Shown here: one piece after another, positions 5 through 16,683 of the stretch
Layout: each line of letters starts with the position of its first letter
Numbering within the stretch: position 1 is the first letter of the stretch
Origin: an uncultured virus (IMG/VR IMGVR_UViG_3300030430_003815)
Lineage: Duplodnaviria > Heunggongvirae > Uroviricota > Caudoviricetes
Direction: 5' to 3' (one strand)
IMG/VR virus record: IMGVR_UViG_3300030430_003815
Length of the DNA: 20,000 nucleotides
Translations under genes and position numbers: made by a program
The notes under the pieces: generated by a model
Databases searched by the model: none
Told to the model about the DNA's origin: nothing
What the model saw: the letters and a program-made list of their open reading frames with translations, nothing else

Positions 5-1075
5 ATGTACAACTATGATTGGTGGTCTTATGATAAAGACATAATGAAAGATTTTAATCATTTCTTAAAAAAGATTAATACTCGAGCATGCATCAATTAT
101 GGTTTTATTGATGAGGAATATGAAAACTTGAATAGGCATGGCGAGTTAGATCATGGCCTAGGACGCAACGTAGAATATTTCCACCCTACAATTACTTTAG
201 ATGATAGAATGAGATATATTGGTACAGTCATTGCGCAACACGATATGTCAGATTTTAGTATCTTAGGTAATGGTATCATATCTCACTTTTATGGAGCACG
301 AGGTTGTCATATGGCAGTTACAGGATCTAATGATCCAAACGACTGTTTTGTTGATTTTGATAGACTGGCTGAAAATGATAAAGATTATTTGCAACATCTT
401 AGAAATAATATAGATAATGCTAAGAGATTAAAAAAACCAATATGGGGTACAACAGAACTTCATACATCAATACAAGCAGCGTCAAGAAATTATTGTAGAG
501 AAAAATATGATGATGCAAATAGATTATTTCATCCAGTTGATGTAGTTGATTGGGTAGCATCATTTAGAGATAATGGAACATATGAAGAACTTTTTGCTGC
601 AGATCATATTGGTCAAGCTTATAAGATATTAAGAAAGTTGCCAGGTATTGGAGAATATTATGGATTTCACGGCGCGGCATCAACTAGTGTTTTGCCTCAA
701 ATGAAATATTATCATGATGATAAATTTGTAGCACCAGGGCCAGGCGCCGTATATACAATAGGACTCATGTGGCCAAAAGCTCCAAAAAAATATTATGCAG
801 AAGCTATTTACTTCTTGAGAGAAAATAGTGATGAAATCGGTCTTACAGAAGATGTTAGTTTCCATCCAGGCGCATATAATATTGACATGCCAGGTGGAAA
901 AAAACTTTTTAGAGAAGATCAAAAAACTCTTAAATATTATGGTACTGAAGTTTTATCTTGTCAGTTCGGTATATACTTGCAGATTAGAGAAGATGCTAAC
1001 ATGTGCGCAAAACGTCAGGTATCAAGAGCTACAGTACTTGAAGATCAAAATACATTAGAAAGTTTTATGCAATGA
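5..1075 (+). CDS. aGPT-PPlase/amino acid:DNA transferase-like protein (helical HhH/glycosylase-like fold), putative DNA base hypermodification enzyme
   Basis: HhH-like LPGIGEYYG, then FVAPGPGA and C-terminal EVLSCQFGIY, matching my recall of the aGPT-PPlase clade 1 pattern (GxGxF...GPGA...E..LC...Y). Starts at the window edge, so the start is unverified. ATGA overlap with the next gene. Confidence 0.6.
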   Translation: MYNYDWWSYDKDIMKDFNHFLKKINTRACINYGFIDEEYENLNRHGELDHGLGRNVEYFHPTITLDDRMRYIGTVIAQHDMSDFSILGNGIISHFYGARGCHMAVTGSNDPNDCFVDFDRLAENDKDYLQHLRNNIDNAKRLKKPIWGTTELHTSIQAASRNYCREKYDDANRLFHPVDVVDWVASFRDNGTYEELFAADHIGQAYKILRKLPGIGEYYGFHGAASTSVLPQMKYYHDDKFVAPGPGAVYTIGLMWPKAPKKYYAEAIYFLRENSDEIGLTEDVSFHPGAYNIDMPGGKKLFREDQKTLKYYGTEVLSCQFGIYLQIREDANMCAKRQVSRATVLEDQNTLESFMQ

Positions 1076-2058
1076 AAGCAATACTAAACTGTCCATTTAT
1101 TCCAGTGGCAAAAAGAATAGCTTCTCATAGAGGAGCTCAAGGTGTCATGTATGGCGATATGATAAAACAAAAATATGGACATTGTGATGTCAACTTTGGT
1201 GGAGAGATTGTAGATCACAATCAGTATGATACGATGTGGGTATATCATGGAAATGATTTTAGTGGTGGATTAAATATGTTTGGCGGTGTTTATGGATTTC
1301 CTTATGTAGAAAATACAGTAAACTTTTCTAAGTTTAAAGGAAAGATAAAATCAATAGCCATTGACTTCCCGCCATATCATGAATGGATAAAAGATAAATT
1401 AGATAAGGCTAAAAAAGATGTACAGCCTGAATGGGCCAATGTAGATTTAAATAATCTTGAAAGAATGTATAATGAAGCTGAAACCGTTGATTATCCAAAT
1501 ATGACTGATAAACTAGTCATAGGTGATTCACATTCAATATGCATGTATAGACCAGGTTGGACCGTCAATAGTATACCATTTAAAACTTTAAATGGAGCAT
1601 TAAAAGAAGGTATCAAAACATTCATACCAAAAGGAAGTTTCAATCAAATAGAATTATATTTTGGCAATATTGATATAAGACATCATGTATGTAGGCTAAA
1701 TGCCGATATAGAAGAATTAGCTGATAGGTATATCGAACAAGCAAAAGAATTAAATGCTAAAATATATGAACTACTGCCGATAGAAAACGAATCACGTAAG
1801 TTACCACAATCTGGATATTACAAAGGCGAACCTTTCTGGGGAACATGGCAAGAAAGAACAGATGCAAGAAATAAGTTTAATGATTATATTGAAAGCAAAT
1901 ATGGAATCATACGATGGACAGATAAATTATTAAATAAAGCCGGTGAACTTGATTTTGCATGTATGGAAAAACCAAAGTCAATACATTTAAGTAGAGAATT
2001 CTATCCTCATTGGAATGGTGAAGAAGAAGTAAATACATTAGAGGAGTTTTTCGGATGA
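1072..2058 (+). CDS. SGNH/GDSL-fold hydrolase or acyltransferase-like protein
   Basis: Block I LVIGDSHS, block III FGNIDIRHH, block V-like SIHLS near the C-terminus. ATGA overlaps at both ends. Confidence 0.65.
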   Translation: MKAILNCPFIPVAKRIASHRGAQGVMYGDMIKQKYGHCDVNFGGEIVDHNQYDTMWVYHGNDFSGGLNMFGGVYGFPYVENTVNFSKFKGKIKSIAIDFPPYHEWIKDKLDKAKKDVQPEWANVDLNNLERMYNEAETVDYPNMTDKLVIGDSHSICMYRPGWTVNSIPFKTLNGALKEGIKTFIPKGSFNQIELYFGNIDIRHHVCRLNADIEELADRYIEQAKELNAKIYELLPIENESRKLPQSGYYKGEPFWGTWQERTDARNKFNDYIESKYGIIRWTDKLLNKAGELDFACMEKPKSIHLSREFYPHWNGEEEVNTLEEFFG

Positions 2059-3251
2059 GCTTTGCAAGTATAGTACCACTTATAGGTGGTGAAACAATAG
2101 CAATGCAGAATGTATCAGGTAAAAAACCAGAATATATATTGAGCTATTCAGCGTTTGAAGCAAACGATAATCAATTAGTTGAGTACTATGATAACAAAGT
2201 CCCATACTATCATTTAGATGGTAACATGCCAAATAGTTTACCAACTGTAGAATCAGTTAATACTGTGTGTCCATGCGCAGGATTAAGCAGTCTTTCTCCA
2301 GTTGCCGGTACAAATAACAGTAATAATGATTGGATGATTTCAACAGCTAAACATGTTTTAGAACATATTAATCCTAAAGTATTTTGGGGAGAAAACGCTC
2401 CAAGACTTGCAAGTAAAATGGGAGAACCTATTGTTAAGAATCTTAGAAAAATTGGTAGAGACAATGGTTATACATTTTCTATTTACAAGACTAAATCTAT
2501 ATTACATGGGCTAAGTCAAGTCAGAGACAGAACATTTTATTTCTTTTGGAAAGGAAACAAAACTCCACAACTACCTTACTTTCGCAGAGATTATGAACGT
2601 ATTGAAGATACTATTAGAAATACTAAACTTGAAAAAGATGATCCTATGAATACTCCTGCTAATAGTAAGGTTCCTACAGATAATCCTTTTTATAAGTATG
2701 TACTAGAAGAGATTGAAGGAGGAATAACACATTCAGAGTTTCAAGAAAAAATAGAACGTAGTACTAATCCTTTAGAAGAAATAGAAAGAGCTGGTATAAA
2801 ATATCGTACTGTGGGTGAGTGGATGACTAAAAATGGTCATGATAGAGAAGCAGAAAAGTGTAAAAGAATGCACGATAAATTAGCATCAGGCGGTAATATA
2901 ATGCGTAAAACTACTGAAATACCAAAAGATTATATTGGAGCTTTTGTTGGTCATATGCCAACTTCATTAACACATCCTGATGAAGATAGGTATCTTACAG
3001 TAAGAGAATGTTTATCAATAATGAAACTACCAAATGATTTTATGTTGCAGGGAGGATTAAAAAATCTTAATCACATTTGTCAAAATGTTCCAGTAACTAC
3101 AGCAGAAGATATGGCTACAAGTGTTCATGCTTTTGTTGAAGGAAGACTTGATAACCAATTGATAGATACTGAATTTTTAGTGCAAGACAATAAAAGTAAA
3201 TCATTAGATTATGAAAGAGATGTTTTGAAATTAGATCAATTTATGGTATAA
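2055..3251 (+). CDS. C5-cytosine DNA methyltransferase-like protein with atypical motif I
   Basis: Motifs in canonical order: IV PCAGLS, VI ENAPRL, VIII SQVRDRTF, IX HPDEDRYLTVRE, X QNVPV. Motif I reads SIVPLIGG instead of FxGxGG. Confidence 0.8.
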   Translation: MSFASIVPLIGGETIAMQNVSGKKPEYILSYSAFEANDNQLVEYYDNKVPYYHLDGNMPNSLPTVESVNTVCPCAGLSSLSPVAGTNNSNNDWMISTAKHVLEHINPKVFWGENAPRLASKMGEPIVKNLRKIGRDNGYTFSIYKTKSILHGLSQVRDRTFYFFWKGNKTPQLPYFRRDYERIEDTIRNTKLEKDDPMNTPANSKVPTDNPFYKYVLEEIEGGITHSEFQEKIERSTNPLEEIERAGIKYRTVGEWMTKNGHDREAEKCKRMHDKLASGGNIMRKTTEIPKDYIGAFVGHMPTSLTHPDEDRYLTVRECLSIMKLPNDFMLQGGLKNLNHICQNVPVTTAEDMATSVHAFVEGRLDNQLIDTEFLVQDNKSKSLDYERDVLKLDQFMV

Positions 3252-3261
3252 AGGAGAAAAA

Positions 3262-4014
3262 ATGAAAATAATGATAACTGGTTCAAGTGGTTTTGTTGGA
3301 AGCCATTTGAAAGAAAGATGGAAAGCTAAAGGTCATCAAATTGTAGAATGGGATAGAAAAGAAGGAAAAGAACTAAAAGACATAGTTATTGATAGCGATA
3401 CAAATTACGTTATTCATCTTGCAGCCTGGGCTGATGTAAGAGCATCAATAGAAAGACCAAATGACTATTGGGAAAATAATGTTGTTACTACAACTAATAT
3501 ACAAAGAATATGTCATGAAAAAGGAATACAATTATTTTATGCATCATCTTCTTGTGTACATGCATGGTCTAAATCACCATACGGTATAAGTAAGAAAGTA
3601 AATGAAGAAACAGCTTTTCCTGGTCAAGTAGGTTTACGATTTACGACAGTTTATGGTGAAGGCGCTAGAGACACGATGATGATTGGAAAACTGGTACGAA
3701 ACGAAGCAAATTATGCCACGAATCATGTAAGAGATTTTATTCATGTTAGCGATGTTATGGATGTCATAGAAATGCTTATGAATAAACCTGTTCATATGCT
3801 TGAACCAGCTTATGATGTAGGAACTGGTATTGGAAATAGAGTTGATTACTTAGCTAATGATATTTGTGGTTATGATCTTCCAGTCAAAGAAGGTCAATCT
3901 TGTGAGGCTTTAGATAATACCGCTGACATAACTTTACTAAGAGATATGAAATGGGAACCAAAAGTAAATATCGTAGATTACTTGAGAGAAAAAACTACAG
4001 TACTCCACCAGTGA
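3262..4014 (+). CDS. NAD-dependent nucleotide-sugar epimerase/dehydratase (extended SDR)
   Basis: ITGSSGFVG Rossmann motif, HLAA, ASSS, YGISK (YxxxK), LRFTTVYG, RDFIHVSD. AGGAG Shine-Dalgarno upstream. Confidence 0.92.
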   Translation: MKIMITGSSGFVGSHLKERWKAKGHQIVEWDRKEGKELKDIVIDSDTNYVIHLAAWADVRASIERPNDYWENNVVTTTNIQRICHEKGIQLFYASSSCVHAWSKSPYGISKKVNEETAFPGQVGLRFTTVYGEGARDTMMIGKLVRNEANYATNHVRDFIHVSDVMDVIEMLMNKPVHMLEPAYDVGTGIGNRVDYLANDICGYDLPVKEGQSCEALDNTADITLLRDMKWEPKVNIVDYLREKTTVLHQ

Positions 4015-4241: not shown

Positions 4242-5279
4242 ATGTCAATAATGGATAAACTCAAAAAGAACTCAAAGCTAAGTCATACCGAAGTTCTTTC
4301 AGAGTCTAAATTTTTTACAGAAAAAGATATGGTAACAACTGATGTACCTATGTTAAACGTTGCTCTATCTGGTTCTGTTGAAGGTGGCTTAGCACCAGGA
4401 CTTACTGTATTAGCAGGTCCGTCTAAACATTTTAAAACTTCATTTGCATTAATGATTGCTTCGGCTTATTTAAAAAAATATTCTGAAGCTGTAATGCTAT
4501 TCTATGATTCAGAGTTTGGTTCACCACAATCTTACTTTCAACAATTTGAAATTGATACGTCAAGAGTTTTACATACGCCTATTACAAATGTAGAAGAACT
4601 TAAATTTGATCTTATAGGTCAACTTGAAAATCTTGATCGTAATGATAAAGTTATTGTAGTTATAGATTCGATAGGCAACCTAGCATCTAAAAAAGAAATG
4701 GAAGATGCACTTAATGAAAAGTCTGTTGCGGATATGTCTAGGGCAAAAGCACTTAAAGGTTTATTTAGAATGACCACACCATATCTTGCAATGAAGAATA
4801 TTCCTTTACTAGCTGTCAATCATACTTATATGGAAATTGGTTTATTTCCTAAAGCTGTTGTTGGTGGTGGTACGGGTATTTACTATTCTGCAGATAATAT
4901 ATGGATCATTGGCCGTCAACAAGATAAGAAAGGTACCGAGATAAAAGGTTATCATTTTGTTATTAATGTAGAAAAATCAAGGTACGTAAAAGAAAAATCT
5001 AAAATTCCAATATCAGTTACTTGGGAAGGCGGTGTATCCAAATTCTCTGGATTATTAGATGTTGCTCTTGCAGGTGGTCATGTTACTAAACCATCAAATG
5101 GTTGGTACCAAAGAAAAGGAGAAGAGAGCAAAGTAAGAGAAGCTGGAACTCTTGAAGAAAACTTTTGGGAGCCAATATTTGCAAATACAGACTTCAAAGA
5201 TTTTATTAAGAGGCAATATTCAATAGGACATACCGCTCCTGTTGAGATGGAAGAGATTGCAGATGAACTCTCCGCTTAA
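4242..5279 (+). CDS. uvsX: UvsX RecA-like recombinase
   Basis: UvsX-type Walker A AGPSKHFKT, FYDSEFG, Walker B VIDSIGNLASKKE, DMSRAK, GGTGIYYSAD. AGGAG SD. T4 gene order uvsX-40-41. Confidence 0.97.
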   Translation: MSIMDKLKKNSKLSHTEVLSESKFFTEKDMVTTDVPMLNVALSGSVEGGLAPGLTVLAGPSKHFKTSFALMIASAYLKKYSEAVMLFYDSEFGSPQSYFQQFEIDTSRVLHTPITNVEELKFDLIGQLENLDRNDKVIVVIDSIGNLASKKEMEDALNEKSVADMSRAKALKGLFRMTTPYLAMKNIPLLAVNHTYMEIGLFPKAVVGGGTGIYYSADNIWIIGRQQDKKGTEIKGYHFVINVEKSRYVKEKSKIPISVTWEGGVSKFSGLLDVALAGGHVTKPSNGWYQRKGEESKVREAGTLEENFWEPIFANTDFKDFIKRQYSIGHTAPVEMEEIADELSA

Positions 5280-5580
5280 AGAAAATGTCGATTATGAATT
5301 CATAGCTGTAGGTGGGGAAGAAAATTCTTGGAGAGTTAGATTCCTCACAGGTCCATATCCTGAAACAATTATATCATTTGGAAAGGTAACAGCTTTCGAA
5401 AATGAACATAGTGATGATGCAACTCTTAAGTTTGATTTTGATATACATTATAGCCCAGACGAAATGCTTACCGATAAAGATGCAGGTCTTCAAGATGCTG
5501 CGGGTAACGTATTAGTTGCTATACTTGAGAGTTCAATAATAGGAAAAGAAATTTTTACAACATCGAGCGAGGATAAATGA
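5263..5580 (+). CDS. acidic hypothetical protein at the T4 gp40 position
   Basis: About 105 aa between uvsX and gene 41, overlapping both. ATG 5263 preferred to 5242. The gp40 identity rests on synteny only. Confidence 0.6.
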   Translation: MNSPLKENVDYEFIAVGGEENSWRVRFLTGPYPETIISFGKVTAFENEHSDDATLKFDFDIHYSPDEMLTDKDAGLQDAAGNVLVAILESSIIGKEIFTTSSEDK

Positions 5581-6962
5581 ATACAAATATAGAACAAGTA
5601 GTTCTAAAGAATATTCTCACGAATGAGAAATATATGCGAAAGGTTCTACCTTTTGTAAAACCAGATTACTTTGAAGGAACATATAAGATTCTCTTCAAAG
5701 AAGCGGGTAAGTTTGTTGGAAAGTATAATAAACTTCCAACGGCTGAAGCCTTCAAGATTGAGATTGATAATGCTGATTCTTTTAACGAAGAGCAATATAG
5801 ACATGCAGTCGAGATTATTCCTAACCTTTTCGAAGAAGAAAAAGCCGATGAAACTTGGCTCTATGATAGTACTGAAAAGTGGTGTCAAGATAGAGCACTA
5901 TATAATGCAGTCATGGAATCAATCTCAATCATTGATGGTAAACATGGAACTCTAACTAAGAATGCTCTACCAGAAATATTAACAAAAGCTTTAGGAGTTT
6001 CTTTTGATACAAACGTAGGTCATGACTATATTGAAAATGCAGATGAACGATATGAGTTCTATCATAGAGATGAAGAACGTATTCCTTTTGATCTAGAATA
6101 TTTTAATCTTATAACAAAAGGTGGTCTTCCTAACAAAACTCTTAATATTTGTCTTGCAGGTACGGGCGTTGGTAAGTCTTTGTTTATGTGCCACTGTGCT
6201 GCATCATCAATGAGTCAAGGCCGTAATGTTCTTTATATTACAATGGAAATGGCTGAAGAACGTATTGCTGAGAGAATAGATGCTAACTTACTTGATTGTC
6301 CTATAGATCAACTACCAAACTTATCAAAAGAAATGTTTGCTGACAGAGTTTATAAATTATCTACAAGAACAAGTGGTAAGTTAATCATAAAAGAATATCC
6401 TACTGGTCAAGCGAGCACTTCTCACTTTAGAGCATTATTAAATGAATTAAAACTTAAGAAGTCTTTTGAACCAGAAATGATCTTTATAGATTATTTAAAC
6501 ATATGTGCTTCATCTAGAATGAAAGGAATGGGCGGTGCAATCAATTCATACAACTACATTAAAGCAATTGCTGAAGAGATACGTGGCCTTGCGGTCGAGT
6601 TTGACGTACCGATCGTATCTGCAACGCAAACGACTCGTTCAGGTTATAGTAACTCGGATATTGGGTTGGAAGATACGTCCGAGTCTTTTGGATTACCCGC
6701 AACTGCCGATTTGATGTTTGCTATTATATCTACTGAAGAACTTGAAAGCATGGGTCAACTTGCTGTAAAACAGTTGAAGAATAGATATAATGATCCAACC
6801 TACAAGAAAAGATTTGTTATTGGCGTTGATAGATCTAAGATGAGATTATATGATGTCAACGAATCAGAACAAACACTGATAGATGACACGCCTGTGTTTG
6901 ATAAAACTCCAACAGGCAAAGCAATAATTGATGAAAAAGCATTTGAAGGATTTAAACTTTAA
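5577..6962 (+). CDS. 41: T4 gp41-like replicative DNA helicase (DnaB family)
   Basis: Walker A AGTGVGKS, YITMEMAEE, IIKEYPT, IFIDYLNICAS, SATQTTRSG, SESFGLPATAD, QLKNRYND. Confidence 0.97.
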   Translation: MNTNIEQVVLKNILTNEKYMRKVLPFVKPDYFEGTYKILFKEAGKFVGKYNKLPTAEAFKIEIDNADSFNEEQYRHAVEIIPNLFEEEKADETWLYDSTEKWCQDRALYNAVMESISIIDGKHGTLTKNALPEILTKALGVSFDTNVGHDYIENADERYEFYHRDEERIPFDLEYFNLITKGGLPNKTLNICLAGTGVGKSLFMCHCAASSMSQGRNVLYITMEMAEERIAERIDANLLDCPIDQLPNLSKEMFADRVYKLSTRTSGKLIIKEYPTGQASTSHFRALLNELKLKKSFEPEMIFIDYLNICASSRMKGMGGAINSYNYIKAIAEEIRGLAVEFDVPIVSATQTTRSGYSNSDIGLEDTSESFGLPATADLMFAIISTEELESMGQLAVKQLKNRYNDPTYKKRFVIGVDRSKMRLYDVNESEQTLIDDTPVFDKTPTGKAIIDEKAFEGFKL

Positions 6963-6970
6963 GGAGAAAT

Positions 6971-7159
6971 ATGATGATAAGCGATATAACTAGATTTCAA
7001 GTATTGATGGAAGAAATAGCATACTTAAAAACAAAAATTCAACCTCATGATACTGGACACATCTATACAACTATAAGTACATTAGAGAGTAGAGTTGAAG
7101 AACTTAAAGAAAGAATGGAACCACAACTGGATAATAAACAGGGAACTTTGTTTGGATAA
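6971..7159 (+). CDS. small hypothetical protein, helical, with C-terminal QGTLF
   Basis: AGGAG SD upstream; 62-aa ORF in a tightly packed operon. Confidence 0.75.
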   Translation: MMISDITRFQVLMEEIAYLKTKIQPHDTGHIYTTISTLESRVEELKERMEPQLDNKQGTLFG

Positions 7160-10618: not shown

Positions 10619-10625
10619 AAAAACG

Positions 10626-10654
10626 TTTACATTGTTTAAAAAATATGGTATAAT
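10626..10654 (+). promoter_or_regulatory. strong sigma70-type/T4 early-like promoter driving the ncRNA island
   Basis: (G)TTTACA 10626-10631, 17-nt spacer, extended TGG-TATAAT 10649-10654, A-tract upstream. Overlapping AATAAATA (10652-10659) is one mismatch from the T4 late promoter. Confidence 0.8.
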
Positions 10655-10664
10655 AAATATATTA

Positions 10665-11030
10665 TTCGGACGGTGAAGCTGAGTTAAAGTAGACTGGACT
10701 CGGGGGCGGTACCCGACGGCTCCACCAAGAATACTGGCCCATAAGTAGCCTTCGTAGCGTCATCCGGATGCCACCATTAAGTAGGTGGTTAGCAGTCAGA
10801 CGATAAAGACAGTAAGATGTCTTAGGGTTTTAGAACGTGGCTTGGTTCTCCAGTATTCTTGATGGGGCCGAAATAGGATCGACAGATATGGAGATAACGT
10901 GGAGTTCGACGGTTAATCGCGTCAAAGATTAAACAAACTAAACGCAAACGATGATTTTGCACCTGTGGATTACGCCCTAGCGGCCTAATCGCACCGAGCC
11001 AGGAGGAGCTTGGGAACAGAATCCTCCACG
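10665..11030 (+). ncRNA. ssrA: circularly permuted (two-piece) tmRNA, alphaproteobacterial type; tag ANDDFAPVDYALAA
   Basis: Acceptor piece comes first: T-stem TCGGG/CCCGA with loop GGCGGTA, then CGGCTCC-ACCA ending at 10727. Coding piece starts GGGGCCGAAATAGGATCGAC at 10864, giving a 7-bp acceptor stem with G3.U70. Tag frame 10944-10988. GGAGGA..GGGAACAGAA..TCCTCC element at the 3' end. Outer ends approximate. Confidence 0.95.
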
Positions 11031-11053
11031 GAATTTGGTCGACGGACTGAATA

Positions 11054-11237
11054 GTGTAGTGCAAGGAAACGCGTCTTACCAAGAGGCGTAACTTGATTGC
11101 TCAGGCGTGGTAGCCAGGTTTAAGGCCTAGCGGCTAAGAATCACATCACCATACCAGGTGGGAGTAAGTTCTGGGAGTTATGAGAGATGGTATCTTGAGC
11201 GACCCAGTTGGAGGTATACCCATAGTCCTCCCTACAC
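11054..11237 (+). ncRNA. structured ncRNA of about 185 nt, resembling the manA RNA motif
   Basis: Closing helix GTGTAG/CTACAC; CAAG/CTTG enclosing ACGCGTCTT/AAGAGGCGT; CACC/GGTG hairpin whose loop ATACCA (11151-11156) is complementary to TGGTAT (11188-11193); CTGGG/CCCAG; GGAGG/CCTCC. The family name is from recall only. Confidence 0.6.
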
Positions 11238-11246
11238 ACATTACAA

Positions 11247-11441: not shown

Positions 11442-11654
11442 ATGGCAAAGATTGGTGACGATATTAAAGAAGCAATGATAGCGCATGCAAAAGGACACAT
11501 TGAAAAACATAAAATGAACGTGATGATTTATTTTCGAAATGCCGCTGGTATCGGTGGAGAAAAACATCCAGATGTACTTGAAGCCATAGAACAAGAGTTA
11601 GATATAGTTGCAAAGTATGATGATCAGATTGAGATGTTAAAAAAGTATTTTTAA
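11442..11654 (+). CDS. small hypothetical protein of a type I recall from marine T4-like phages
   Basis: GGGAG SD; motif AHAKGHIEKH...AGIG..HPD..EAIEQEL. Confidence 0.8.
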   Translation: MAKIGDDIKEAMIAHAKGHIEKHKMNVMIYFRNAAGIGGEKHPDVLEAIEQELDIVAKYDDQIEMLKKYF

Positions 11655-12892
11655 TGCAAACAGCTATCTGGACAATTGAAAAGCACAATAATTTTGATCA
11701 GCTCTATCCAGCTATTTTATCTTTATATTGGCATGTCTTCGAAGATTGGAAAGAAGGATTAGGTGTAATAAAAAAACATATATTTGAAGATAACGTTGAT
11801 CATTCGTGTAATAATATAGCAATTATAAGAGTGGCTCGTACCGAGTTATTTCGTTATAATCCAGGTTTTCAAGTTGCGTCGCATTTTAAAAATAACTGCC
11901 TACCGATAATACAATGGTGTTTAGATAGAAAAATAAAAGTTTTATTAGATGATGCTTGGGAAATAGGCGCGATGTTTACTGATGAGTTTGGTGATATATT
12001 AAAAGGATATTGGCCTTTCATAGTTGAGAATAATATTAAAATATTAGCTAATAGGCCACAAATAGAAGATAATTATGTATGCGAAGATACTGTTTATAAA
12101 TCACGAAGAGACGTTTATATAGATTCAAATTTTTTTATCTTTCAAACAAGACAACAGCATTTAAAAGATAACTTTCGCTTCAGAATGAATACTCATCCCA
12201 CATTACATAAAGATAAGAAATATTTGTATACTTGCTTGTTTGGCAATATAGCTAAAAGAAATAATGCATTTTTATATGCTAGTCTTTTAAAAAATAATCT
12301 TATTGGTGGTGATAGTTTTACTTCTACTGTTTTACGAAAAGGCGATCCTGAGTATCCTAAAAAGAGTGAGCATGCTATAGATTATCATGAAACTATAGAT
12401 TGGATATACAAGCATAAAGATGTTGTTTATAGAGATCGACCTTTTGATGAAAAAGATTTTGAGTCAGGCGCCGTACCAGAAAGAAGAATTCCACAAGAGT
12501 TGTATGACTCACATTTTGCAATAAATGTAGAAACCTCTCTGAACCCTTGGTTTTACACCGAAAAAACCTTCAAATACATAATTGCAAAGATTCCTTTTTT
12601 ATCTTATGGCGGGTATTATTTTAGTTCTGGTCTTAGGAGAAATTATGGCTTCGAAAGATTTGAAGAGATATTTGATTATTCGTATGAAGAAACTGCAATT
12701 CCAGGCAATAGATATTGTCTCATAGAAGGTATTCTTGAAAATGTTAAACGTTTAAAAAAAGAACCGGTTTCAATATTTAATCAACCTTCAGTAAGAGAGA
12801 AATTAGATTACAATGAATCTTTATTTTATAAACTCACCACAATTGATAAACTAAAAGAACACTTTAATAATATTATACAGGCAGTAAAATGA
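11654..12892 (+). CDS. putative glycosyltransferase-like protein, paralog 1
   Basis: C-terminal domain ERRIPQELYDSHFAINVET...YTEKTFK..I..KIPF...FDYSYE, reminiscent of the GT10-type TEK motif. Shared with two nearby paralogs. Confidence 0.55.
   Translation: MQTAIWTIEKHNNFDQLYPAILSLYWHVFEDWKEGLGVIKKHIFEDNVDHSCNNIAIIRVARTELFRYNPGFQVASHFKNNCLPIIQWCLDRKIKVLLDDAWEIGAMFTDEFGDILKGYWPFIVENNIKILANRPQIEDNYVCEDTVYKSRRDVYIDSNFFIFQTRQQHLKDNFRFRMNTHPTLHKDKKYLYTCLFGNIAKRNNAFLYASLLKNNLIGGDSFTSTVLRKGDPEYPKKSEHAIDYHETIDWIYKHKDVVYRDRPFDEKDFESGAVPERRIPQELYDSHFAINVETSLNPWFYTEKTFKYIIAKIPFLSYGGYYFSSGLRRNYGFERFEEIFDYSYEETAIPGNRYCLIEGILENVKRLKKEPVSIFNQPSVREKLDYNESLFYKLTTIDKLKEHFNNIIQAVK
12653..12692 (+). repeat. 40-nt exact direct repeat, copy 1 (copy 2 at 14017-14056)
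   Basis: GAAAGATTTGAAGAGATATTTGATTATTCGTATGAAGAAA is identical in paralogs 1 and 2. Confidence 0.9.
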
Positions 12893-14262
12893 TTTCGTTA
12901 TGGGTTACTGCTGAAAATATACATCACCAATTTTATGGTACAACAGCAAGACACCAAATGGTCGGTAATACTACCTCAATCGGATCAATATTTCAAATCG
13001 TGCCAAGAATTTATGATGGTTTTAAAATCAAAAAAATATTTGAAGATAAAGTTAAAAAAGAAGAGACTAATCTGGCAATAATACGTGCTGATTGTAGATA
13101 TATGTGGCACTACGATAACAATCATACGAACTGGAAATATATCAAAAAACAATGTGACTGGTGTCTTGACAATCATATTCAACCAGTTATAGACGATTGT
13201 TGGGAAGCCGGAGAACCTTTTGCCAGATCATATACTGGCTGGCAGGAACAAAAAGACTACTTAATAAAAAATAAAATTAAGATCATAGCATGCACACCAA
13301 AAATTCATCACAAGTTTAAATGGGATAATGAAAAGGATGGATGTTTTAAGTTCGACACTGACGACGTATTTATTAATTTTGACAATTTTTTCTATCTTAC
13401 TCGATATCAGCATCAAATGTTCAATAATAACTTTAAGATGAGGACCTATCCGACTTTTCATGAAAATAAAAAATATCTCTTTACAGCACTGACTGGAGAT
13501 ATTCTAAAAAAGAGAAATGGAGTTCTTTTAGGTAGTCTATTTTATAACAATCTTATAGATGAAAATTGTTTTTATACATCAATCGTTGGGTCAGATATTC
13601 CTGAAAAATGGATAGCTGAAGATCATATGGTTGATATTGTAGATAAAGAAACTCTGCATGAATTGGAAGAATACGTAAACGAAAATAAAGAAAAAATACT
13701 TAAACATAAACCCTTTGATGATAATTATAAAAATATAGATCCAGACGTACCTGTTCTACCTTGTCAAGGCGAGAAAGGAAATGATCCTTTATTTCCTTTG
13801 GAAGGAGATGTATCAGAGCCACCTGGAAGTAGTATGATTTATGAAAGAAGAATTCCACAAGAGTTATACGACTCGCATTTCTCTATAAATGTAGAAACCA
13901 TGGATCACCCTTTCTTCTTTACAGAAAAAACTTTTAAAAATGTAATTGCAAAGATTCCTTTTATAACATACGGTGGTTCTTACTTTTCTGCAGGACTAAA
14001 AGAACACCATGGTTTAGAAAGATTTGAAGAGATATTTGATTATTCGTATGAAGAAATTCCACCAAAAAATACAAGATCTGGTAAATATGCCAAAGGAATA
14101 GTCGATAACATTAAACGTTTGAAAAAAGAACCTGTCTCAATATTTAGCCAGCCTTCAGTAAGAGAAAAACTAGATTATAACGAGTATATATACCTCAAAA
14201 TGACAACAGATATTGAAGTACAAAAGGCTGTAGAAAAATTATTTTATGAGGTTTTAAAATGA
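12889..14262 (+). CDS. putative glycosyltransferase-like protein, paralog 2
   Basis: ERRIPQELYDSHFSINVET...FTEKTFK..IAKIPF...FDYSYE...QPSVREKLDYN. ATGA overlaps at both ends. Confidence 0.55.
   Translation: MISLWVTAENIHHQFYGTTARHQMVGNTTSIGSIFQIVPRIYDGFKIKKIFEDKVKKEETNLAIIRADCRYMWHYDNNHTNWKYIKKQCDWCLDNHIQPVIDDCWEAGEPFARSYTGWQEQKDYLIKNKIKIIACTPKIHHKFKWDNEKDGCFKFDTDDVFINFDNFFYLTRYQHQMFNNNFKMRTYPTFHENKKYLFTALTGDILKKRNGVLLGSLFYNNLIDENCFYTSIVGSDIPEKWIAEDHMVDIVDKETLHELEEYVNENKEKILKHKPFDDNYKNIDPDVPVLPCQGEKGNDPLFPLEGDVSEPPGSSMIYERRIPQELYDSHFSINVETMDHPFFFTEKTFKNVIAKIPFITYGGSYFSAGLKEHHGLERFEEIFDYSYEEIPPKNTRSGKYAKGIVDNIKRLKKEPVSIFSQPSVREKLDYNEYIYLKMTTDIEVQKAVEKLFYEVLK
14017..14056 (+). repeat. 40-nt exact direct repeat, copy 2
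   Basis: Identical to 12653-12692. Confidence 0.9.
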
Positions 14263-15386
14263 ACATAGGATTTATAGGACTTGGAAAATTAGGAGGACCG
14301 GTAGTAGAAGCTATCAGAGAAGCTGGTCATAGTGTCGTTGGATATGATGTAAATGGATCTGGTACTGATTCAATAGAAAACTGTGTAAAAGATTCTGAGA
14401 TTGTATTTGTTGCGGTTCCAACACCTCATGATCCGGCTTACGATGGAAAGTATGTATGCAGTAATCTAGAACCAAAAGATTTCGATTACACTATTGCTAG
14501 AGATGTCTTAACAGAAGCTGATAAGTACATGATTAAAGATCAGTTACTAGTCTTAATATCTACAGTTCTTCCAGGAACCACAAGAGAACACTTTGAACCA
14601 AATGTTAAAAATGCTACCTTTATATACAATCCATATTTAATTGCAATGGGAACTGTTAAGAGAGATTTCTTAAATCCTGAAATGATTATGATGGGATCTA
14701 AAGACGAGTATGCGATGTTTCGATTGGAAGAATTCTACAAACAAATATGTAATTGCGATAGATACATCAGAGGAACATATGAAGAGTGTGAAGCAATTAA
14801 AATATTTTATAATACATTTATTACTACAAAGATCACTCTTGTTAATATGATTCAAGACGTAGCAATGAGACTCGGAAATATGAACGTTGATGTAGTTACA
14901 GATGCACTTGCTCATTCTACTGAAAGAATTATGTCACCGAGATATATGACAGCAGGAATGGGAGACGGTGGTTCTTGTCATCCAAGAGATAACATAGCTT
15001 TAAGATATATGGCTCAAGAACTTAGACTTGGATATGACATATTTGATACTATCATAAAAGCTCGAGAAGAGCAAGCAAGAAACATGGCAAACTTCTTAAA
15101 AGATCTATCTTTAGAAAACAATCTTCCAATTGTTATAATTGGAAAAGGATTTAAGCCAGATGTACCGTATGAAGATGGATCATCATCTATATTAGTATCG
15201 CAGTTTTGCGATTGTACTTTCGATGATTTTTCTAAACCTGCAGTATTTCTACTAGCGCATTCGCGTAAGATAACTTACGGCGGTATCAATGATGATTATA
15301 ACTTTCCGAAAGGATCAGTAATTGTGGATCCTTGGAGAGAAAGAAAAGACGCTATTTGGTATGGTAACACAAGAAATGAAACTTGA
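14259..15386 (+). CDS. ugd: UDP-glucose/GDP-mannose 6-dehydrogenase family protein
   Basis: IGFIGLGKLG, FVAVPTP, STVLPGTT, IKIFYNTF, catalytic GGSCHPRD, GFKPD, IVDPW. Confidence 0.92.
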   Translation: MNIGFIGLGKLGGPVVEAIREAGHSVVGYDVNGSGTDSIENCVKDSEIVFVAVPTPHDPAYDGKYVCSNLEPKDFDYTIARDVLTEADKYMIKDQLLVLISTVLPGTTREHFEPNVKNATFIYNPYLIAMGTVKRDFLNPEMIMMGSKDEYAMFRLEEFYKQICNCDRYIRGTYEECEAIKIFYNTFITTKITLVNMIQDVAMRLGNMNVDVVTDALAHSTERIMSPRYMTAGMGDGGSCHPRDNIALRYMAQELRLGYDIFDTIIKAREEQARNMANFLKDLSLENNLPIVIIGKGFKPDVPYEDGSSSILVSQFCDCTFDDFSKPAVFLLAHSRKITYGGINDDYNFPKGSVIVDPWRERKDAIWYGNTRNET

Positions 15387-16683
15387 AATATGGACTGATC
15401 TAGATTATAAAGAACGACCTGGTATATGGAATCTCTGCGCGATGAGAGGAATAACCGATTATTTTACTGGAGATCTAAAAAGAGTCGAACAAGATAAATT
15501 TGAAGAAAATAAAAATGTTAAAATTTATTTTGCTGATCGAACTATTATGGACAACTGGGATATCGCAAGTAAAGTATTACTACTTGAAGACTATTCCAAT
15601 CATTCTAGTATAAAATATGAATTTGCCTCCTGGAGAAAAAATTTTAATATATTTTTACCAGTCTTTCAGAGAAATATAAATTGGTGTAAAGAACATGATG
15701 TACAACCTTACATTGATATGGTTTGGGAATCTATTGATGATCACTACTTTCGTGAATTTAAAGAGTGCAGATTATGGAAGTATATTGTAGATAATGATAT
15801 TAAAATTATATGTCACACGCCTATTAATCACCCCAATCTCATAGATGTAAACAGATTTTTTGAATTTGAATTTATATCTACTTTGTATGGGGATGTTAGA
15901 AATCATTCTTCTTTATTTTTAAAGCCTAAGTGGAACGAGAAGAAAAAATATTTTTATTGTAGTCATATGGGATGTATTTCAACTAAATATGAAATTCAAA
16001 GATTTTTAGTTCACGCTATGGAAGAGAAAGAATTATGGAATGATGAGTTCTTTTGGTCAGTCTTGAACAAGAGACCGACTTTAGCGAAAGAATCTCCATA
16101 TTATACTTCAAAATATAAACATCTTTTTGAAGCAAATACTTGGGAATCAAAAACTGTAAATTATTACGATAGTACTACAGAATCGTGGGATCCCAGCAGT
16201 TACAAAAGTAACGTCAATCCAGAAAGAAGAATATCGCCACAAATGATAGACAGCGAATGTTACATCGTTTTTGAAAATAATTATGCTTATCATACAGAAA
16301 AAACTATAAAACCTATATATGCTCAACTTCCTTTCATAATATTTGCGCCGCCAGCTGATTCAAATAAAACAGATATACCTAATCTCTTGAACGCTAATAG
16401 AAGACTAAAGAAACACGGATACGAAATATTTGATGAAGTATTCGACTATTCTTTTGAAGACAAAGGATTAAATACAGAAGATATGATGGATGAATTCATA
16501 AAGGAATTAGTTCGAGTCAAGAAAGAAGGTAGAAATATTTGGGAGCAGCCGTCAGTAAAAGAAAAAGTAAGATATAATCATTATTTACTTTTAAAAAGAG
16601 CAAGCACCGAAGAAATGATAAAATATTTTATAAAAATATTTACTGAAAAAACAACTCCACTATTATTGTCAAATGATAAATAA
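15376..16683 (+). CDS. putative glycosyltransferase-like protein, paralog 3 (more diverged)
   Basis: PERRISPQMIDS...HTEKTIKPI...LPF...GYEIFDEVFDYSFE...QPSVKEK. ATG 15376, overlapping the ugd stop, is more plausible than 15322. Confidence 0.5.
   Translation: MKLEIWTDLDYKERPGIWNLCAMRGITDYFTGDLKRVEQDKFEENKNVKIYFADRTIMDNWDIASKVLLLEDYSNHSSIKYEFASWRKNFNIFLPVFQRNINWCKEHDVQPYIDMVWESIDDHYFREFKECRLWKYIVDNDIKIICHTPINHPNLIDVNRFFEFEFISTLYGDVRNHSSLFLKPKWNEKKKYFYCSHMGCISTKYEIQRFLVHAMEEKELWNDEFFWSVLNKRPTLAKESPYYTSKYKHLFEANTWESKTVNYYDSTTESWDPSSYKSNVNPERRISPQMIDSECYIVFENNYAYHTEKTIKPIYAQLPFIIFAPPADSNKTDIPNLLNANRRLKKHGYEIFDEVFDYSFEDKGLNTEDMMDEFIKELVRVKKEGRNIWEQPSVKEKVRYNHYLLLKRASTEEMIKYFIKIFTEKTTPLLLSNDK

Follow-up and report, generated by a model that had tools for sequence, protein, structure and literature searches.

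In phages T4 and RB69, a peptide at the C-terminus of the DNA polymerase gp43 docks the enzyme on the trimeric sliding clamp gp45, and clamp-binding tails on gp43, gp55 and gp33 are textbook knowledge. In animals, the PIP-box by which DNMT1 contacts PCNA couples maintenance methylation to replication. Here, we analyze a stretch of 20,000 nucleotides (referred to as the window) from an uncultured marine T4-like myovirus (IMG/VR record IMGVR_UViG_3300030430_003815), in which three adjacent, translationally coupled genes, ORF1, ORF2 and ORF3, encode putative DNA-modifying enzymes that all end in a peptide resembling the C-terminus of gp43. We consider it likely that the three enzymes dock on gp45 via these polymerase-like tails and that DNA modification is thereby coupled to replication.

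In the T4 record, gp43 ends in ...ASLDFLFG and gp55 in ...SLDFLYEAND, and, according to a passage of a review (PMC9690074), gp55 and gp33 attach to gp45 by an LDFL motif at their C-terminus, in agreement with the [S/T]LDFL-type tails that the initial annotation of the window had named for the T4 clamp clients. Like the gp43, gp55 and gp33 peptides of T4 and RB69, the tails described here are short, located at the extreme C-terminus, hydrophobic and acidic, and of the form [ST]-L-[DE]-x-hydrophobic-F-x; the end of ORF2 (...NTLEEFFG) has the same length and register as that of the marine gp43 (...[ST]LEDFFG), down to the final glycine. However, the carriers are base-modifying enzymes instead of a polymerase or late-transcription factors, and their docking is something that we infer from sequence. 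The likeness to DNMT1 lies in a DNA methyltransferase being brought to new DNA by a short clamp-binding motif of the L-x-x-aromatic-aromatic type; that system, however, belongs to another kingdom, uses another clamp and has its motif in an N-terminal and internal position, whereas here a whole multi-enzyme hypermodification pathway carries the motif. Among phage enzymes, the idea of a DNA-modifying enzyme that works at the fork via the sliding clamp is associated with the T4 alpha-glucosyltransferase, whose interaction with gp45 (Sommer et al. 2004) is cited in a passage of PMC6024577. While the T4 enzyme ends in ...KEQFDIITK and has no gp43-like tail, several enzyme families carry a conserved polymerase-mimicking peptide in the phages analyzed here.

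The tail can be written as [ST/x]-L-[DE]-x-F-[FM]-x-COOH. It is preceded by a linker that varies and is probably flexible, and it reproduces the end of the gp43 of the same lineage. We propose that ORF1, ORF2 and ORF3 would use it to bind gp45 rings that remain on newly replicated DNA, and that this docking would tie modification to replication in time and place.

Tails on three consecutive enzymes and their orthologues

ORF1 (positions 5–1075) encodes a protein of 356 residues that resembles the amino-acid:DNA transferases (AADT) and has a predicted helix-hairpin-helix (HhH) glycosylase fold, ORF2 (1072–2058) a two-domain protein of 328 residues that includes an SGNH/GDSL domain, and ORF3 (2055–3251) a DNA C5-methyltransferase-like enzyme of 398 residues. 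All three lie on the plus strand, and the ORF1/ORF2 and ORF2/ORF3 overlaps both read ATGA. The proteins end in ...EDQNTLESFMQ, ...EEVNTLEEFFG and ...RDVLKLDQFMV, respectively. Counted as the last eight codons plus the stop codon, the putative gp45-docking peptides therefore occupy positions 1049–1075 (tail 1, NTLESFMQ), 2032–2058 (tail 2, NTLEEFFG, the closest copy of the gp43 tail) and 3225–3251 (tail 3, LKLDQFMV, more divergent, of the form L-[DET]-x-F-[MF]-hydrophobic) of the plus strand. The initial annotation had given these three ends with exactly these coordinates, and had correctly set them apart from the product of the fourth gene, ORF4 (3262–4014, plus strand), an NAD-dependent nucleotide-sugar epimerase (Pfam PF01370, E 1.5e-28) that ends in ...EKTTVLHQ and has no tail. 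The tails make up the last seven to eight residues of each protein and appear to behave as short linear motifs on a flexible end: model confidence is low there (pLDDT below 50 at residues 342–356 of ORF1 and 325–328 of ORF2), and in the alignments of all three families, the columns that precede the tails vary and contain many gaps.

To count such ends, we used a strict pattern, [LI][DE]x[FW][FLMIV]x?$, and a wider one, [LI][DETSN]x[FW][FLMIV]x{0,3}$. Among the 47 open reading frames (ORFs) of at least 50 residues in the six frames of the window, the strict pattern is matched by three, which are exactly ORF1, ORF2 and ORF3.

Orthologues were collected by IMG/VR scans, in which an ORF2 query retrieved 29 loci and an InoS query 80 loci; distinct contigs were counted. 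InoS, an inositol-phosphate-synthase-like protein of 355 residues (Pfam PF01658, E 1.4e-8; TIGR03450, E 7e-39, which is under the cut-off of that family), and p134, a protein of 134 residues, are encoded just upstream of ORF1 in a 9.4-kb record that is identical to the window (G001/L001); in this record, a stop codon and a further gene immediately precede position 5, which identifies the ATG there as the start of ORF1. The tail pattern is kept in 50 of 55 contigs for ORF1, 48 of 60 for ORF2 and 37 of 38 for ORF3, that is, in 135 of 153 orthologue instances. Conversely, none of 244 control proteins encoded on the same contigs has it (InoS 0/88, p134 0/78, epimerase 0/9, UvsX 0/36, gp41 0/33). 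Alignment of the C-termini of the homologues, as the initial annotation had advised, revealed that the tails are conserved even though the bodies of the proteins fall to 24–30% identity; within the ORF1 family, members with only 24–26% body identity still end in PTLEAFV or GTLEQWI, and some ORF3 orthologues end in TSLEEFFG or PSLEEFFA.

The exceptions include several slightly altered tails. Of the five ORF1 misses, three are near-misses (NTLANFLT), one is a variant (LEALMG) and one is truly tail-less; the only ORF3 miss is a variant (LEHVFA); and the 12 ORF2 misses consist of ten members of a single tail-less clade (...REFYPHWNQ), one variant (LEEIFG) and one other protein. The three variants come from one contig, L126 (5432–8973), on which all three tails are shifted alike (ORF1 ...PLEALMG, ORF2 ...NLEEIFG, ORF3 ...NLEHVFA), the aromatic residue being displaced by one position. 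This contig does not include gp43; the parallel shift suggests that the three tails have a common partner. The tail-less ORF2 clade (L025–L034, for example L028 6001–6993) stands at 46–49% identity, and its contigs lack ORF1, ORF3 and InoS.

Short motifs with four defined positions arise easily, and in an AT-rich genome the likeness of the three ends could in principle reflect chance or compositional bias: given the amino acid composition of the window, the wider pattern has a probability of about 0.0035 per protein. However, matches in any three consecutive genes among 26 are expected only about 1e-6 times, none of 5000 residue shuffles produced three or more matches, and the orthologues differ from the controls as described above. 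These counts refute an explanation by chance or composition, to which we assign virtually no weight.

Match to the polymerase tails and the sliding clamp

The gp43 and gp45 proteins of this lineage were taken from contigs of relatives, which were reached via the upstream InoS gene. A total of 18 contigs contain gp43 along with at least one of ORF1–ORF3. In 14 of these, the module members bear tails (e.g. NTLEEFFV, NTLEDFFV or LQLDEFML), and the gp43 of the same contig ends in ATLEDFF[VT], [AS]SLEDFFG, ANLEDFFG or ATLNDFFA; the remaining four (L027–L030) carry a tail-less ORF2. On contig L127, for example, gp43 ends in ATLEDFFV, ORF1 in NTLEEFFV, ORF2 in NTLEDFFV and ORF3 in LRLDQFMI, while on L135, whose ORF1 is 91% identical to that of the window, the corresponding ends are ATLEDFFT, STLEEFMQ, NTLEEFFV and LQLDEFML. 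In 80 further loci, which contain relatives of the gp43 of phage C48C1, 73 of 74 ORFs of gp43 size end in L-E-[DE]-F-F-x. The closest complete genome that we found, that of phage C48C1 (gp41 68% identical), has a gp43 that ends in ...AATLEDFFG, adjoined by a Dam methyltransferase that ends in ...STLDAFFG; its gp55 ends in ...DLSEWMED, and its gp33 in ...QQNTLDV, which is outside the tail pattern. Thus, the comparison with the cognate polymerase that had been proposed along with the clamp hypothesis turned out in its favor, as the gp43 encoded on the same contigs in relatives ends in the same peptide, [ST]LEDFF[GVTA].

Homologues of ORF2 are also present in T4-like phages of Aeromonas, in two of which (44RR and 31) they are fused to a homologue of ORF1. 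In phages 25 and 44RR, both the polymerase and the modification enzyme have a different tail. The ORF2 homologue of phage 25 ends in ...KTLELFDI and the ORF2+ORF1 fusion protein of 44RR in ...CSLDGLFAI, while the gp43 of each ends in ...NNLFDMFDI; over 63 kb and 30 kb of phages 25/44RR, just these two proteins per phage end in hydrophobic-F-[DAE]-[IFLV]. A third lineage was reached via a representative of the ORF2 family (the group of representatives that end in ...xLF was examined in this one lineage). Here, 74 of 78 ORFs for the ORF2 homologue terminate in ...ALF or ...SLF. PolB is split on these loci, and its C-terminal piece has the end ...NLIYASALF or a near variant in 10 loci, while an [ASTG][LM]F end is found on just one other of 1652 ORFs. 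Across the three lineages, the tail of the ORF2 family consequently changes together with that of the polymerase, which is what a shared binding pocket would predict. The two PolB ORFs of the third lineage encode about 468 and about 400 residues (PolB is also split in Aeromonas phages 25 and 44RR), and the ...ASALF tail is restricted to the C-terminal piece (L223, L243, L251, L253, L254, L266–L268, L283, L288).

The tail is not confined to ORF1–ORF3. In relatives, further carriers near gp43 include D12 Dam methyltransferases, a Mom-family protein, a TET-associated glycosyltransferase (TAGT), TET/JBP dioxygenases, Asn-synthase/QueC-like proteins, a SinI-like fragment and two proteins of 106 and 381 residues without assigned function. 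In 150 of the 156 kb of C48C1 (522 ORFs), the pattern is matched by gp43, gp55, Dam, TET/JBP and three others, namely a baseplate hub protein, an ORF antisense to annotated genes and a stretch that begins at an internal start within an annotated hypothetical protein. Conversely, none of 175 metabolic enzymes from these modules (InoS, the HAD-like p134 and the epimerase) has the tail. It could be argued that the tails bind the clamp mainly to regulate replication or late transcription, by competition with gp43, gp55 and gp33: a trimeric clamp offers three sites, yet there are many tailed clients (gp43, the three enzymes, and Dam and TET in other phages). We regard this as very improbable, since nearly all carriers are enzymes of unrelated folds that have DNA as their substrate, and the absence of the tail from the metabolic enzymes likewise fits targeting.

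As for the clamp itself, gp45 is present in four of five records of relatives that bear the module, and its matches in the PDB include the clamps of RB69 and T4 (E 4e-36); the entries with the clamp sequence include 1b8h, which we take to be the RB69 clamp–peptide structure. A complex was predicted for three copies of the gp45 of G009 (the contig of locus L138, whose ORF1 is 90% identical to that of the window) and residues 355–398 of ORF3. The three runs scored 0.59, 0.59 and 0.58, with contacts that agree by at least 39% and a partner pLDDT of at least 39, as compared to 0.00 for the best control, in which unrelated partners were used or an unrelated protein replaced gp45. While the mark for this score is reached by 116 of 157 solved complexes and by 2 of 215 mismatched pairs, passes at 0.60 or under comprise just 18 of the 157 solved complexes together with both of the passing mismatches. 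Structure prediction, also suggested in the initial annotation, therefore speaks for contact between the ORF3 tail and the gp45 of a relative, but as a weak pass.

Might the tails dock both the enzymes and gp43 on a common partner other than gp45, such as the single-strand-binding protein gp32, the loader of the helicase or a scaffold on which a modification complex assembles? The tie to gp45 is one of sequence likeness, the predicted complex passes only weakly, and the different conserved aromatic tail of gp41 indicates that the replisome has other C-terminal handles. However, the tails equal the C-terminus of a T4/RB69-type gp43 in position and composition (T4 ...SLDFLFG), the gp55 proteins of C48C1 and of the Aeromonas phages contain a related element near their end (L-[SD]-x-[WF]-[MY]), as does the T4 clamp client gp55, and the complex controls with unrelated partners or a gp45 substitute yielded nothing. 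We therefore consider a different common partner quite improbable.

The tail of gp41 has the form [ST]F[AE][DG]FK[LVTI] in orthologues (L013–L197) and reads ...KAFEGFKL in the window (6930–6962); unlike the gp43-type tail, it may be a handle for another partner in the replisome.

Several points weigh against docking of ORF1–ORF3 on gp45. The gp43 and gp45 of the window phage itself are deduced from relatives, and in the nearest contigs with gp43, ORF1 is 90–91% identical to that of the window while ORF2 and ORF3 are only 59–66% identical. The ORF3 tail is the weakest copy, as judged by its sequence, having no Ser/Thr before the leucine and ending in F-M-V. Nor is the tail obligatory: the ten contigs of the tail-less ORF2 clade have proteins that end in ...REFYPHWNQ right after the last conserved block, and at least one of the phages concerned, G006, has gp45 as well as a gp43 that ends in SNLEEFFT. 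The ORF3 homologue of Pseudoalteromonas phage XG4 is tail-less despite a gp45 homologue. (The ORF3 homologue of cyanophage S-TIM5 is also tail-less, but no gp45 was found in its genome, which is consistent with docking on the clamp.) Moreover, many distant members of the ORF2 family are plainly tail-less; of 149 family representatives, considered without genomic context, only 11 have an end that fits the strict marine pattern, and 124 fit none of the three patterns applied. The predicted complex adds little beyond the comparative evidence, and its pass may be a matter of memory, since the RB69 clamp–polymerase peptide complex has already been solved. The T4 alpha-glucosyltransferase is the sole published precedent for a clamp-bound phage DNA modifier, and, as stated in a passage of a recent report (10.64898/2025.12.06.692756 = PMC13216743), its interaction with gp45 was not reproduced in pull-downs with the C-terminally His-tagged enzyme. 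Finally, the tail 2 codons TTA GAG GAG contain the GAGGAG ribosome-binding site of ORF3, 8 nucleotides before the ORF3 start.

The last point bears on a further alternative, in which the tails are functionless as peptides, being a by-product of DNA-level constraints (start, stop and ribosome-binding overlaps) or of a 3' cassette spread by recombination. The ATGA overlaps and the Glu-Glu codons of tail 2 would fit such an origin, as would the fact that the codons of tails 1 and 2 are identical over the first 11 nucleotides. However, a ribosome-binding site cannot account for the conserved leucine and the aromatic pair, or for the same tail on genes elsewhere: this peptide also terminates the products of gp43, Dam, Mom, TAGT and TET/JBP genes, whose downstream neighbors differ, and the ORF3 tail is followed by an intergenic spacer with an AGGAG of its own. 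In addition, three lineages show the tails changing along with that of the polymerase, including where the DNA sequences are unrelated. We thus view a DNA-level origin as extremely improbable, and clamp docking as the reading that the tails favor.

Folds of the tailed enzymes and their candidate substrate

The labels that the initial annotation had attached to the three enzymes (AADT-like, SGNH and methyltransferase-like) hold at the level of fold or family. ORF1 matches Pfam HMUDK_hel (PF18723) at residues 181–277 (E 4.5e-9), which is its only Pfam match even at an E limit of 5, and it contains the hairpin LPGIGEYYGFH. Its AlphaFold2 model (pLDDT 87) points to an HhH glycosylase/AADT-like fold. 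While Foldseek gave nothing at E 0.001 or better (all E above 0.1), VIA-align ranks 1–23 are all members of the HhH-glycosylase superfamily, led by 7ugk, a queuine-salvage enzyme (Z 9.3), 3n0u, an OGG (Z 8.9), and 8z2m, the PaMx11 gp46 5-PmdU glycinyltransferase (Z 8.7; root mean square deviation 4.1 over 214 residues). The latter is the solved AADT structure, and it is nearly tied with the first two. With the described 5-HMUDK kinase/AADT systems (PMC5889632, PMC8989533), ORF1 shares the HMUDK_hel domain, its model can be aligned with gp46, and the enzymes of thymidine hypermodification act post-replication on a 5-hydroxymethyl pyrimidine, as we propose for ORF1. However, the module in which ORF1 is found differs from those systems: no match to any aGPT-Pplase Pfam family was obtained for ORF1 even at E up to 5, no partner P-loop 5-HMUDK kinase was detected among the scanned window genes or among the 11 ORFs between gp43 and InoS in L135, and the associated hydroxymethylase is gp42-like, that is, of the dCMP type.

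ORF2 carries, according to its AlphaFold2 model (pLDDT 87.7), an SGNH/GDSL domain at about residues 140–315, preceded by an N-terminal alpha/beta domain (about 1–135). Foldseek gave 14 matches at E 0.001 or better, including 2hsj (E 2.2e-6), and the 50 VIA-align rows (Z 11.5–7.2) are, by title, nearly all SGNH/GDSL-type esterases or acyltransferases, headed by 9kqz (Z 11.5; root mean square deviation 3.0 over 159 residues) and 2hsj (Z 11.2; 3.1 over 159 residues). Among the structural matches are the peptidoglycan O-acetyltransferases OatA and PatB, and 3slr, which is titled a phosphatase domain. GDSH (151–154), with the GDS of block I, and FGNIDxRHH (197–205), including G198-N199-I200-D201, are invariant in 28 sequences; SGNH block III reads GNID and not GxND. 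No Pfam family, GDSL families included, matched ORF2 at E 0.01 or better. A likeness of residues 1–135 to the T4 beta-glucosyltransferase was considered and set aside, as the signal is weak (Pfam E 0.06; Foldseek 1qkj E 5.9e-3, TM 0.28); we claim no fold for this region, since the SGNH domain takes up the structural match lists.

ORF3 is, on the basis of its sequence, a C5-methyltransferase-like protein that matches Pfam PF00145 over residues 3–356 (E 9.7e-17; 61.8 bits, cut-off 22), while its NCBIfam dcm score of 34 bits is under the cut-off of 100.65. P73-C74, E113-N114-A115, Q155/R157/R159 (QxRxR) and Q343-N344-V345 are invariant in 24 sequences, and we take these blocks to be the C5-methyltransferase motifs with the catalytic Pro-Cys, ENV, QxRxR and motif X, respectively. 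Motif I, canonically FxGxG, reads as a variant, P-L-I-G-G-E, of which P8, L9, I10, G11 and G12 are invariant.

What the three enzymes act on is suggested by the genes that lie between gp43 and InoS in relatives, which encode a MazG-like pyrophosphatase, a DUF1599 protein, a ThyA-like enzyme, a dCMP deaminase and a UDG-like fragment; L124, whose InoS is 99% identical to that of the window phage, has the same upstream genes. The ThyA-like protein of L135 is 52% identical to the T4 gp42 dCMP hydroxymethylase and keeps the motif ...RSNDVVFG..NDYAWQ, including the ND of RNDYAW; this motif holds the cytosine-specifying Asp179. Since relatives encode this gp42-like enzyme upstream, the phage DNA probably contains 5-hydroxymethylcytosine (5hmC), and since the hydroxymethylase is of the dCMP type, 5hmC is more likely as the modified base than 5-hydroxymethyldeoxyuridine (5hmdU). 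We infer that DNA containing 5hmC is probably the substrate of ORF1–ORF3. The cultured Aeromonas phages 44RR, 31 and 25, which bear a tailed ORF2 homologue, are listed in a passage of Petrov et al. (PMC2993671) as having genes 42 and 56 but no glucosyltransferase genes.

The attached group would probably be supplied by InoS together with p134, and may be a cyclitol. No Pfam or NCBIfam family matched p134; HAD-phosphatase clusters of the Atlas at 0.90–0.91 provide a lead only. The position of InoS and p134 is taken by a Na+/solute symporter in 44RR and by a UDP-galactopyranose mutase in phage 25. In another group of loci (L155–L158, L166, L168, L175, L177), InoS and p134 occur without ORF1–ORF3, and a tailed TET/JBP dioxygenase (...ASSLE[GS]FF) is encoded just after gp41; L156–L158 add a tailed protein of 381 residues that ends in ...GLDAFL. 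InoS and p134 would thus be found alongside two distinct routes to 5hmC. In both C48C1 (L210 84–3531) and Aeromonas phage 25 (L003 3776–7047), a tailed DNA enzyme, which is TET/JBP in the former and the ORF2 homologue in the latter, is adjoined by a UDP-galactopyranose mutase together with an unannotated protein of about 350 residues; the two proteins of about 350 residues are 29% identical (E 2e-42), and the pair may represent a DNA galactofuranosylation module.

It is conceivable, although we hold it to be unlikely in this full form, that ORF1–ORF3 constitute a clamp-riding assembly line that turns replicated 5hmC into an undescribed hypermodified cytosine with a cyclitol- or sugar-derived moiety. 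The gp42-like dCMP hydroxymethylase would then supply 5hmC, and InoS and the HAD-like phosphatase the moiety. No SGNH enzyme is known to work on DNA, and this SGNH domain would be the first, by acylation or deacylation of the 5-CH2-OH group or of its adduct; action of this kind on an adduct, as raised in the initial annotation, is plausible. The ORF2+ORF1 pair, fused in 44RR, would be the analogue of a 5-hmdU DNA kinase, with an acyl-transfer domain in place of the kinase domain, while ORF3 would apply its covalent Cys-C6 chemistry to 5hmC instead of methylating cytosine.

Genomic setting and significance

In relatives, the module occupies the slot between gp43 and UvsX. In the window, ORF4 is followed, on the plus strand, by UvsX (4242–5279; PHROG 97, E 1e-89), a small ORF (5242–5580) and the gp41 helicase (5577–6962; PHROG 19, E 1.4e-127). 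Behind gp41, an ORF of 62 residues (6971–7159, plus strand) ends in ...DNKQGTLFG, which has a loose likeness to clamp-binding ends but is outside the patterns counted here. Neither gp43 nor gp45 is found on the 9.4-kb fragment G001, and the 55-kb relative G002 has no PolB match. A megablast search identified no near-identical cultured phage, but only 70.7% identity over gp41, in P-HM2.

Further downstream, the window contains a permuted, two-piece tmRNA of the alphaproteobacterial type (10622–11030, plus strand; Rfam RF01849, 115 bits; also RF04321, 102 bits), with a manA RNA motif immediately behind it (11033–11241, plus strand; RF01745, 68.6 bits); ARAGORN reported no tRNA or tmRNA in the window. 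An alpha-type tmRNA on a phage hints at an alphaproteobacterial host, perhaps a SAR11-like one. Three paralogues of 412–457 residues (11654–12892, 12889–14262 and 15322–16683, plus strand) flank a UDP-glucose dehydrogenase (around 14259–15386). They match no Pfam or PHROG family, and since none has a tail, clamp-mediated action on DNA is improbable for them.

Full-text searching, in which subscription journals were outside coverage, found no paper on polymerase-like tails on phage modification enzymes. The text of PMC8989533 contains neither 'clamp' nor 'SGNH', and 10.1101/2023.12.21.572611 mentions 'clamp' for a gene neighborhood only. New here are a whole three-enzyme pathway with the tail, including SGNH-domain and HhH-fold proteins, the co-variation in three lineages and the link to cultured Aeromonas phages.

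The tail provides a cheap predictor, in that DNA is the probable site of action of any uncharacterized protein whose end resembles that of the local polymerase. This predictor assigns a DNA role to the SGNH-domain family, which comprises 559 clusters at 50% identity, nearly all of them unannotated, and it suggests where the missing 5hmC-tailoring enzymes may be found in the Aeromonas phages, whose genes 42 and 56 are, according to the same passage (PMC2993671), not accompanied by a glucosyltransferase gene. If ORF1–ORF3 do form an assembly line on 5hmC, the gp43-like tail could serve as a sequence tag by which T4-like phages are screened for unknown enzymes that act on DNA. Furthermore, if the tails dock on gp45, hypermodification would be physically coupled to the replication fork in many marine T4-like phages and in Aeromonas phages 25, 31 and 44RR. 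New DNA would then be protected at once from host nucleases, and these phages would possess a counterpart of the DNMT1–PCNA coupling of animals.

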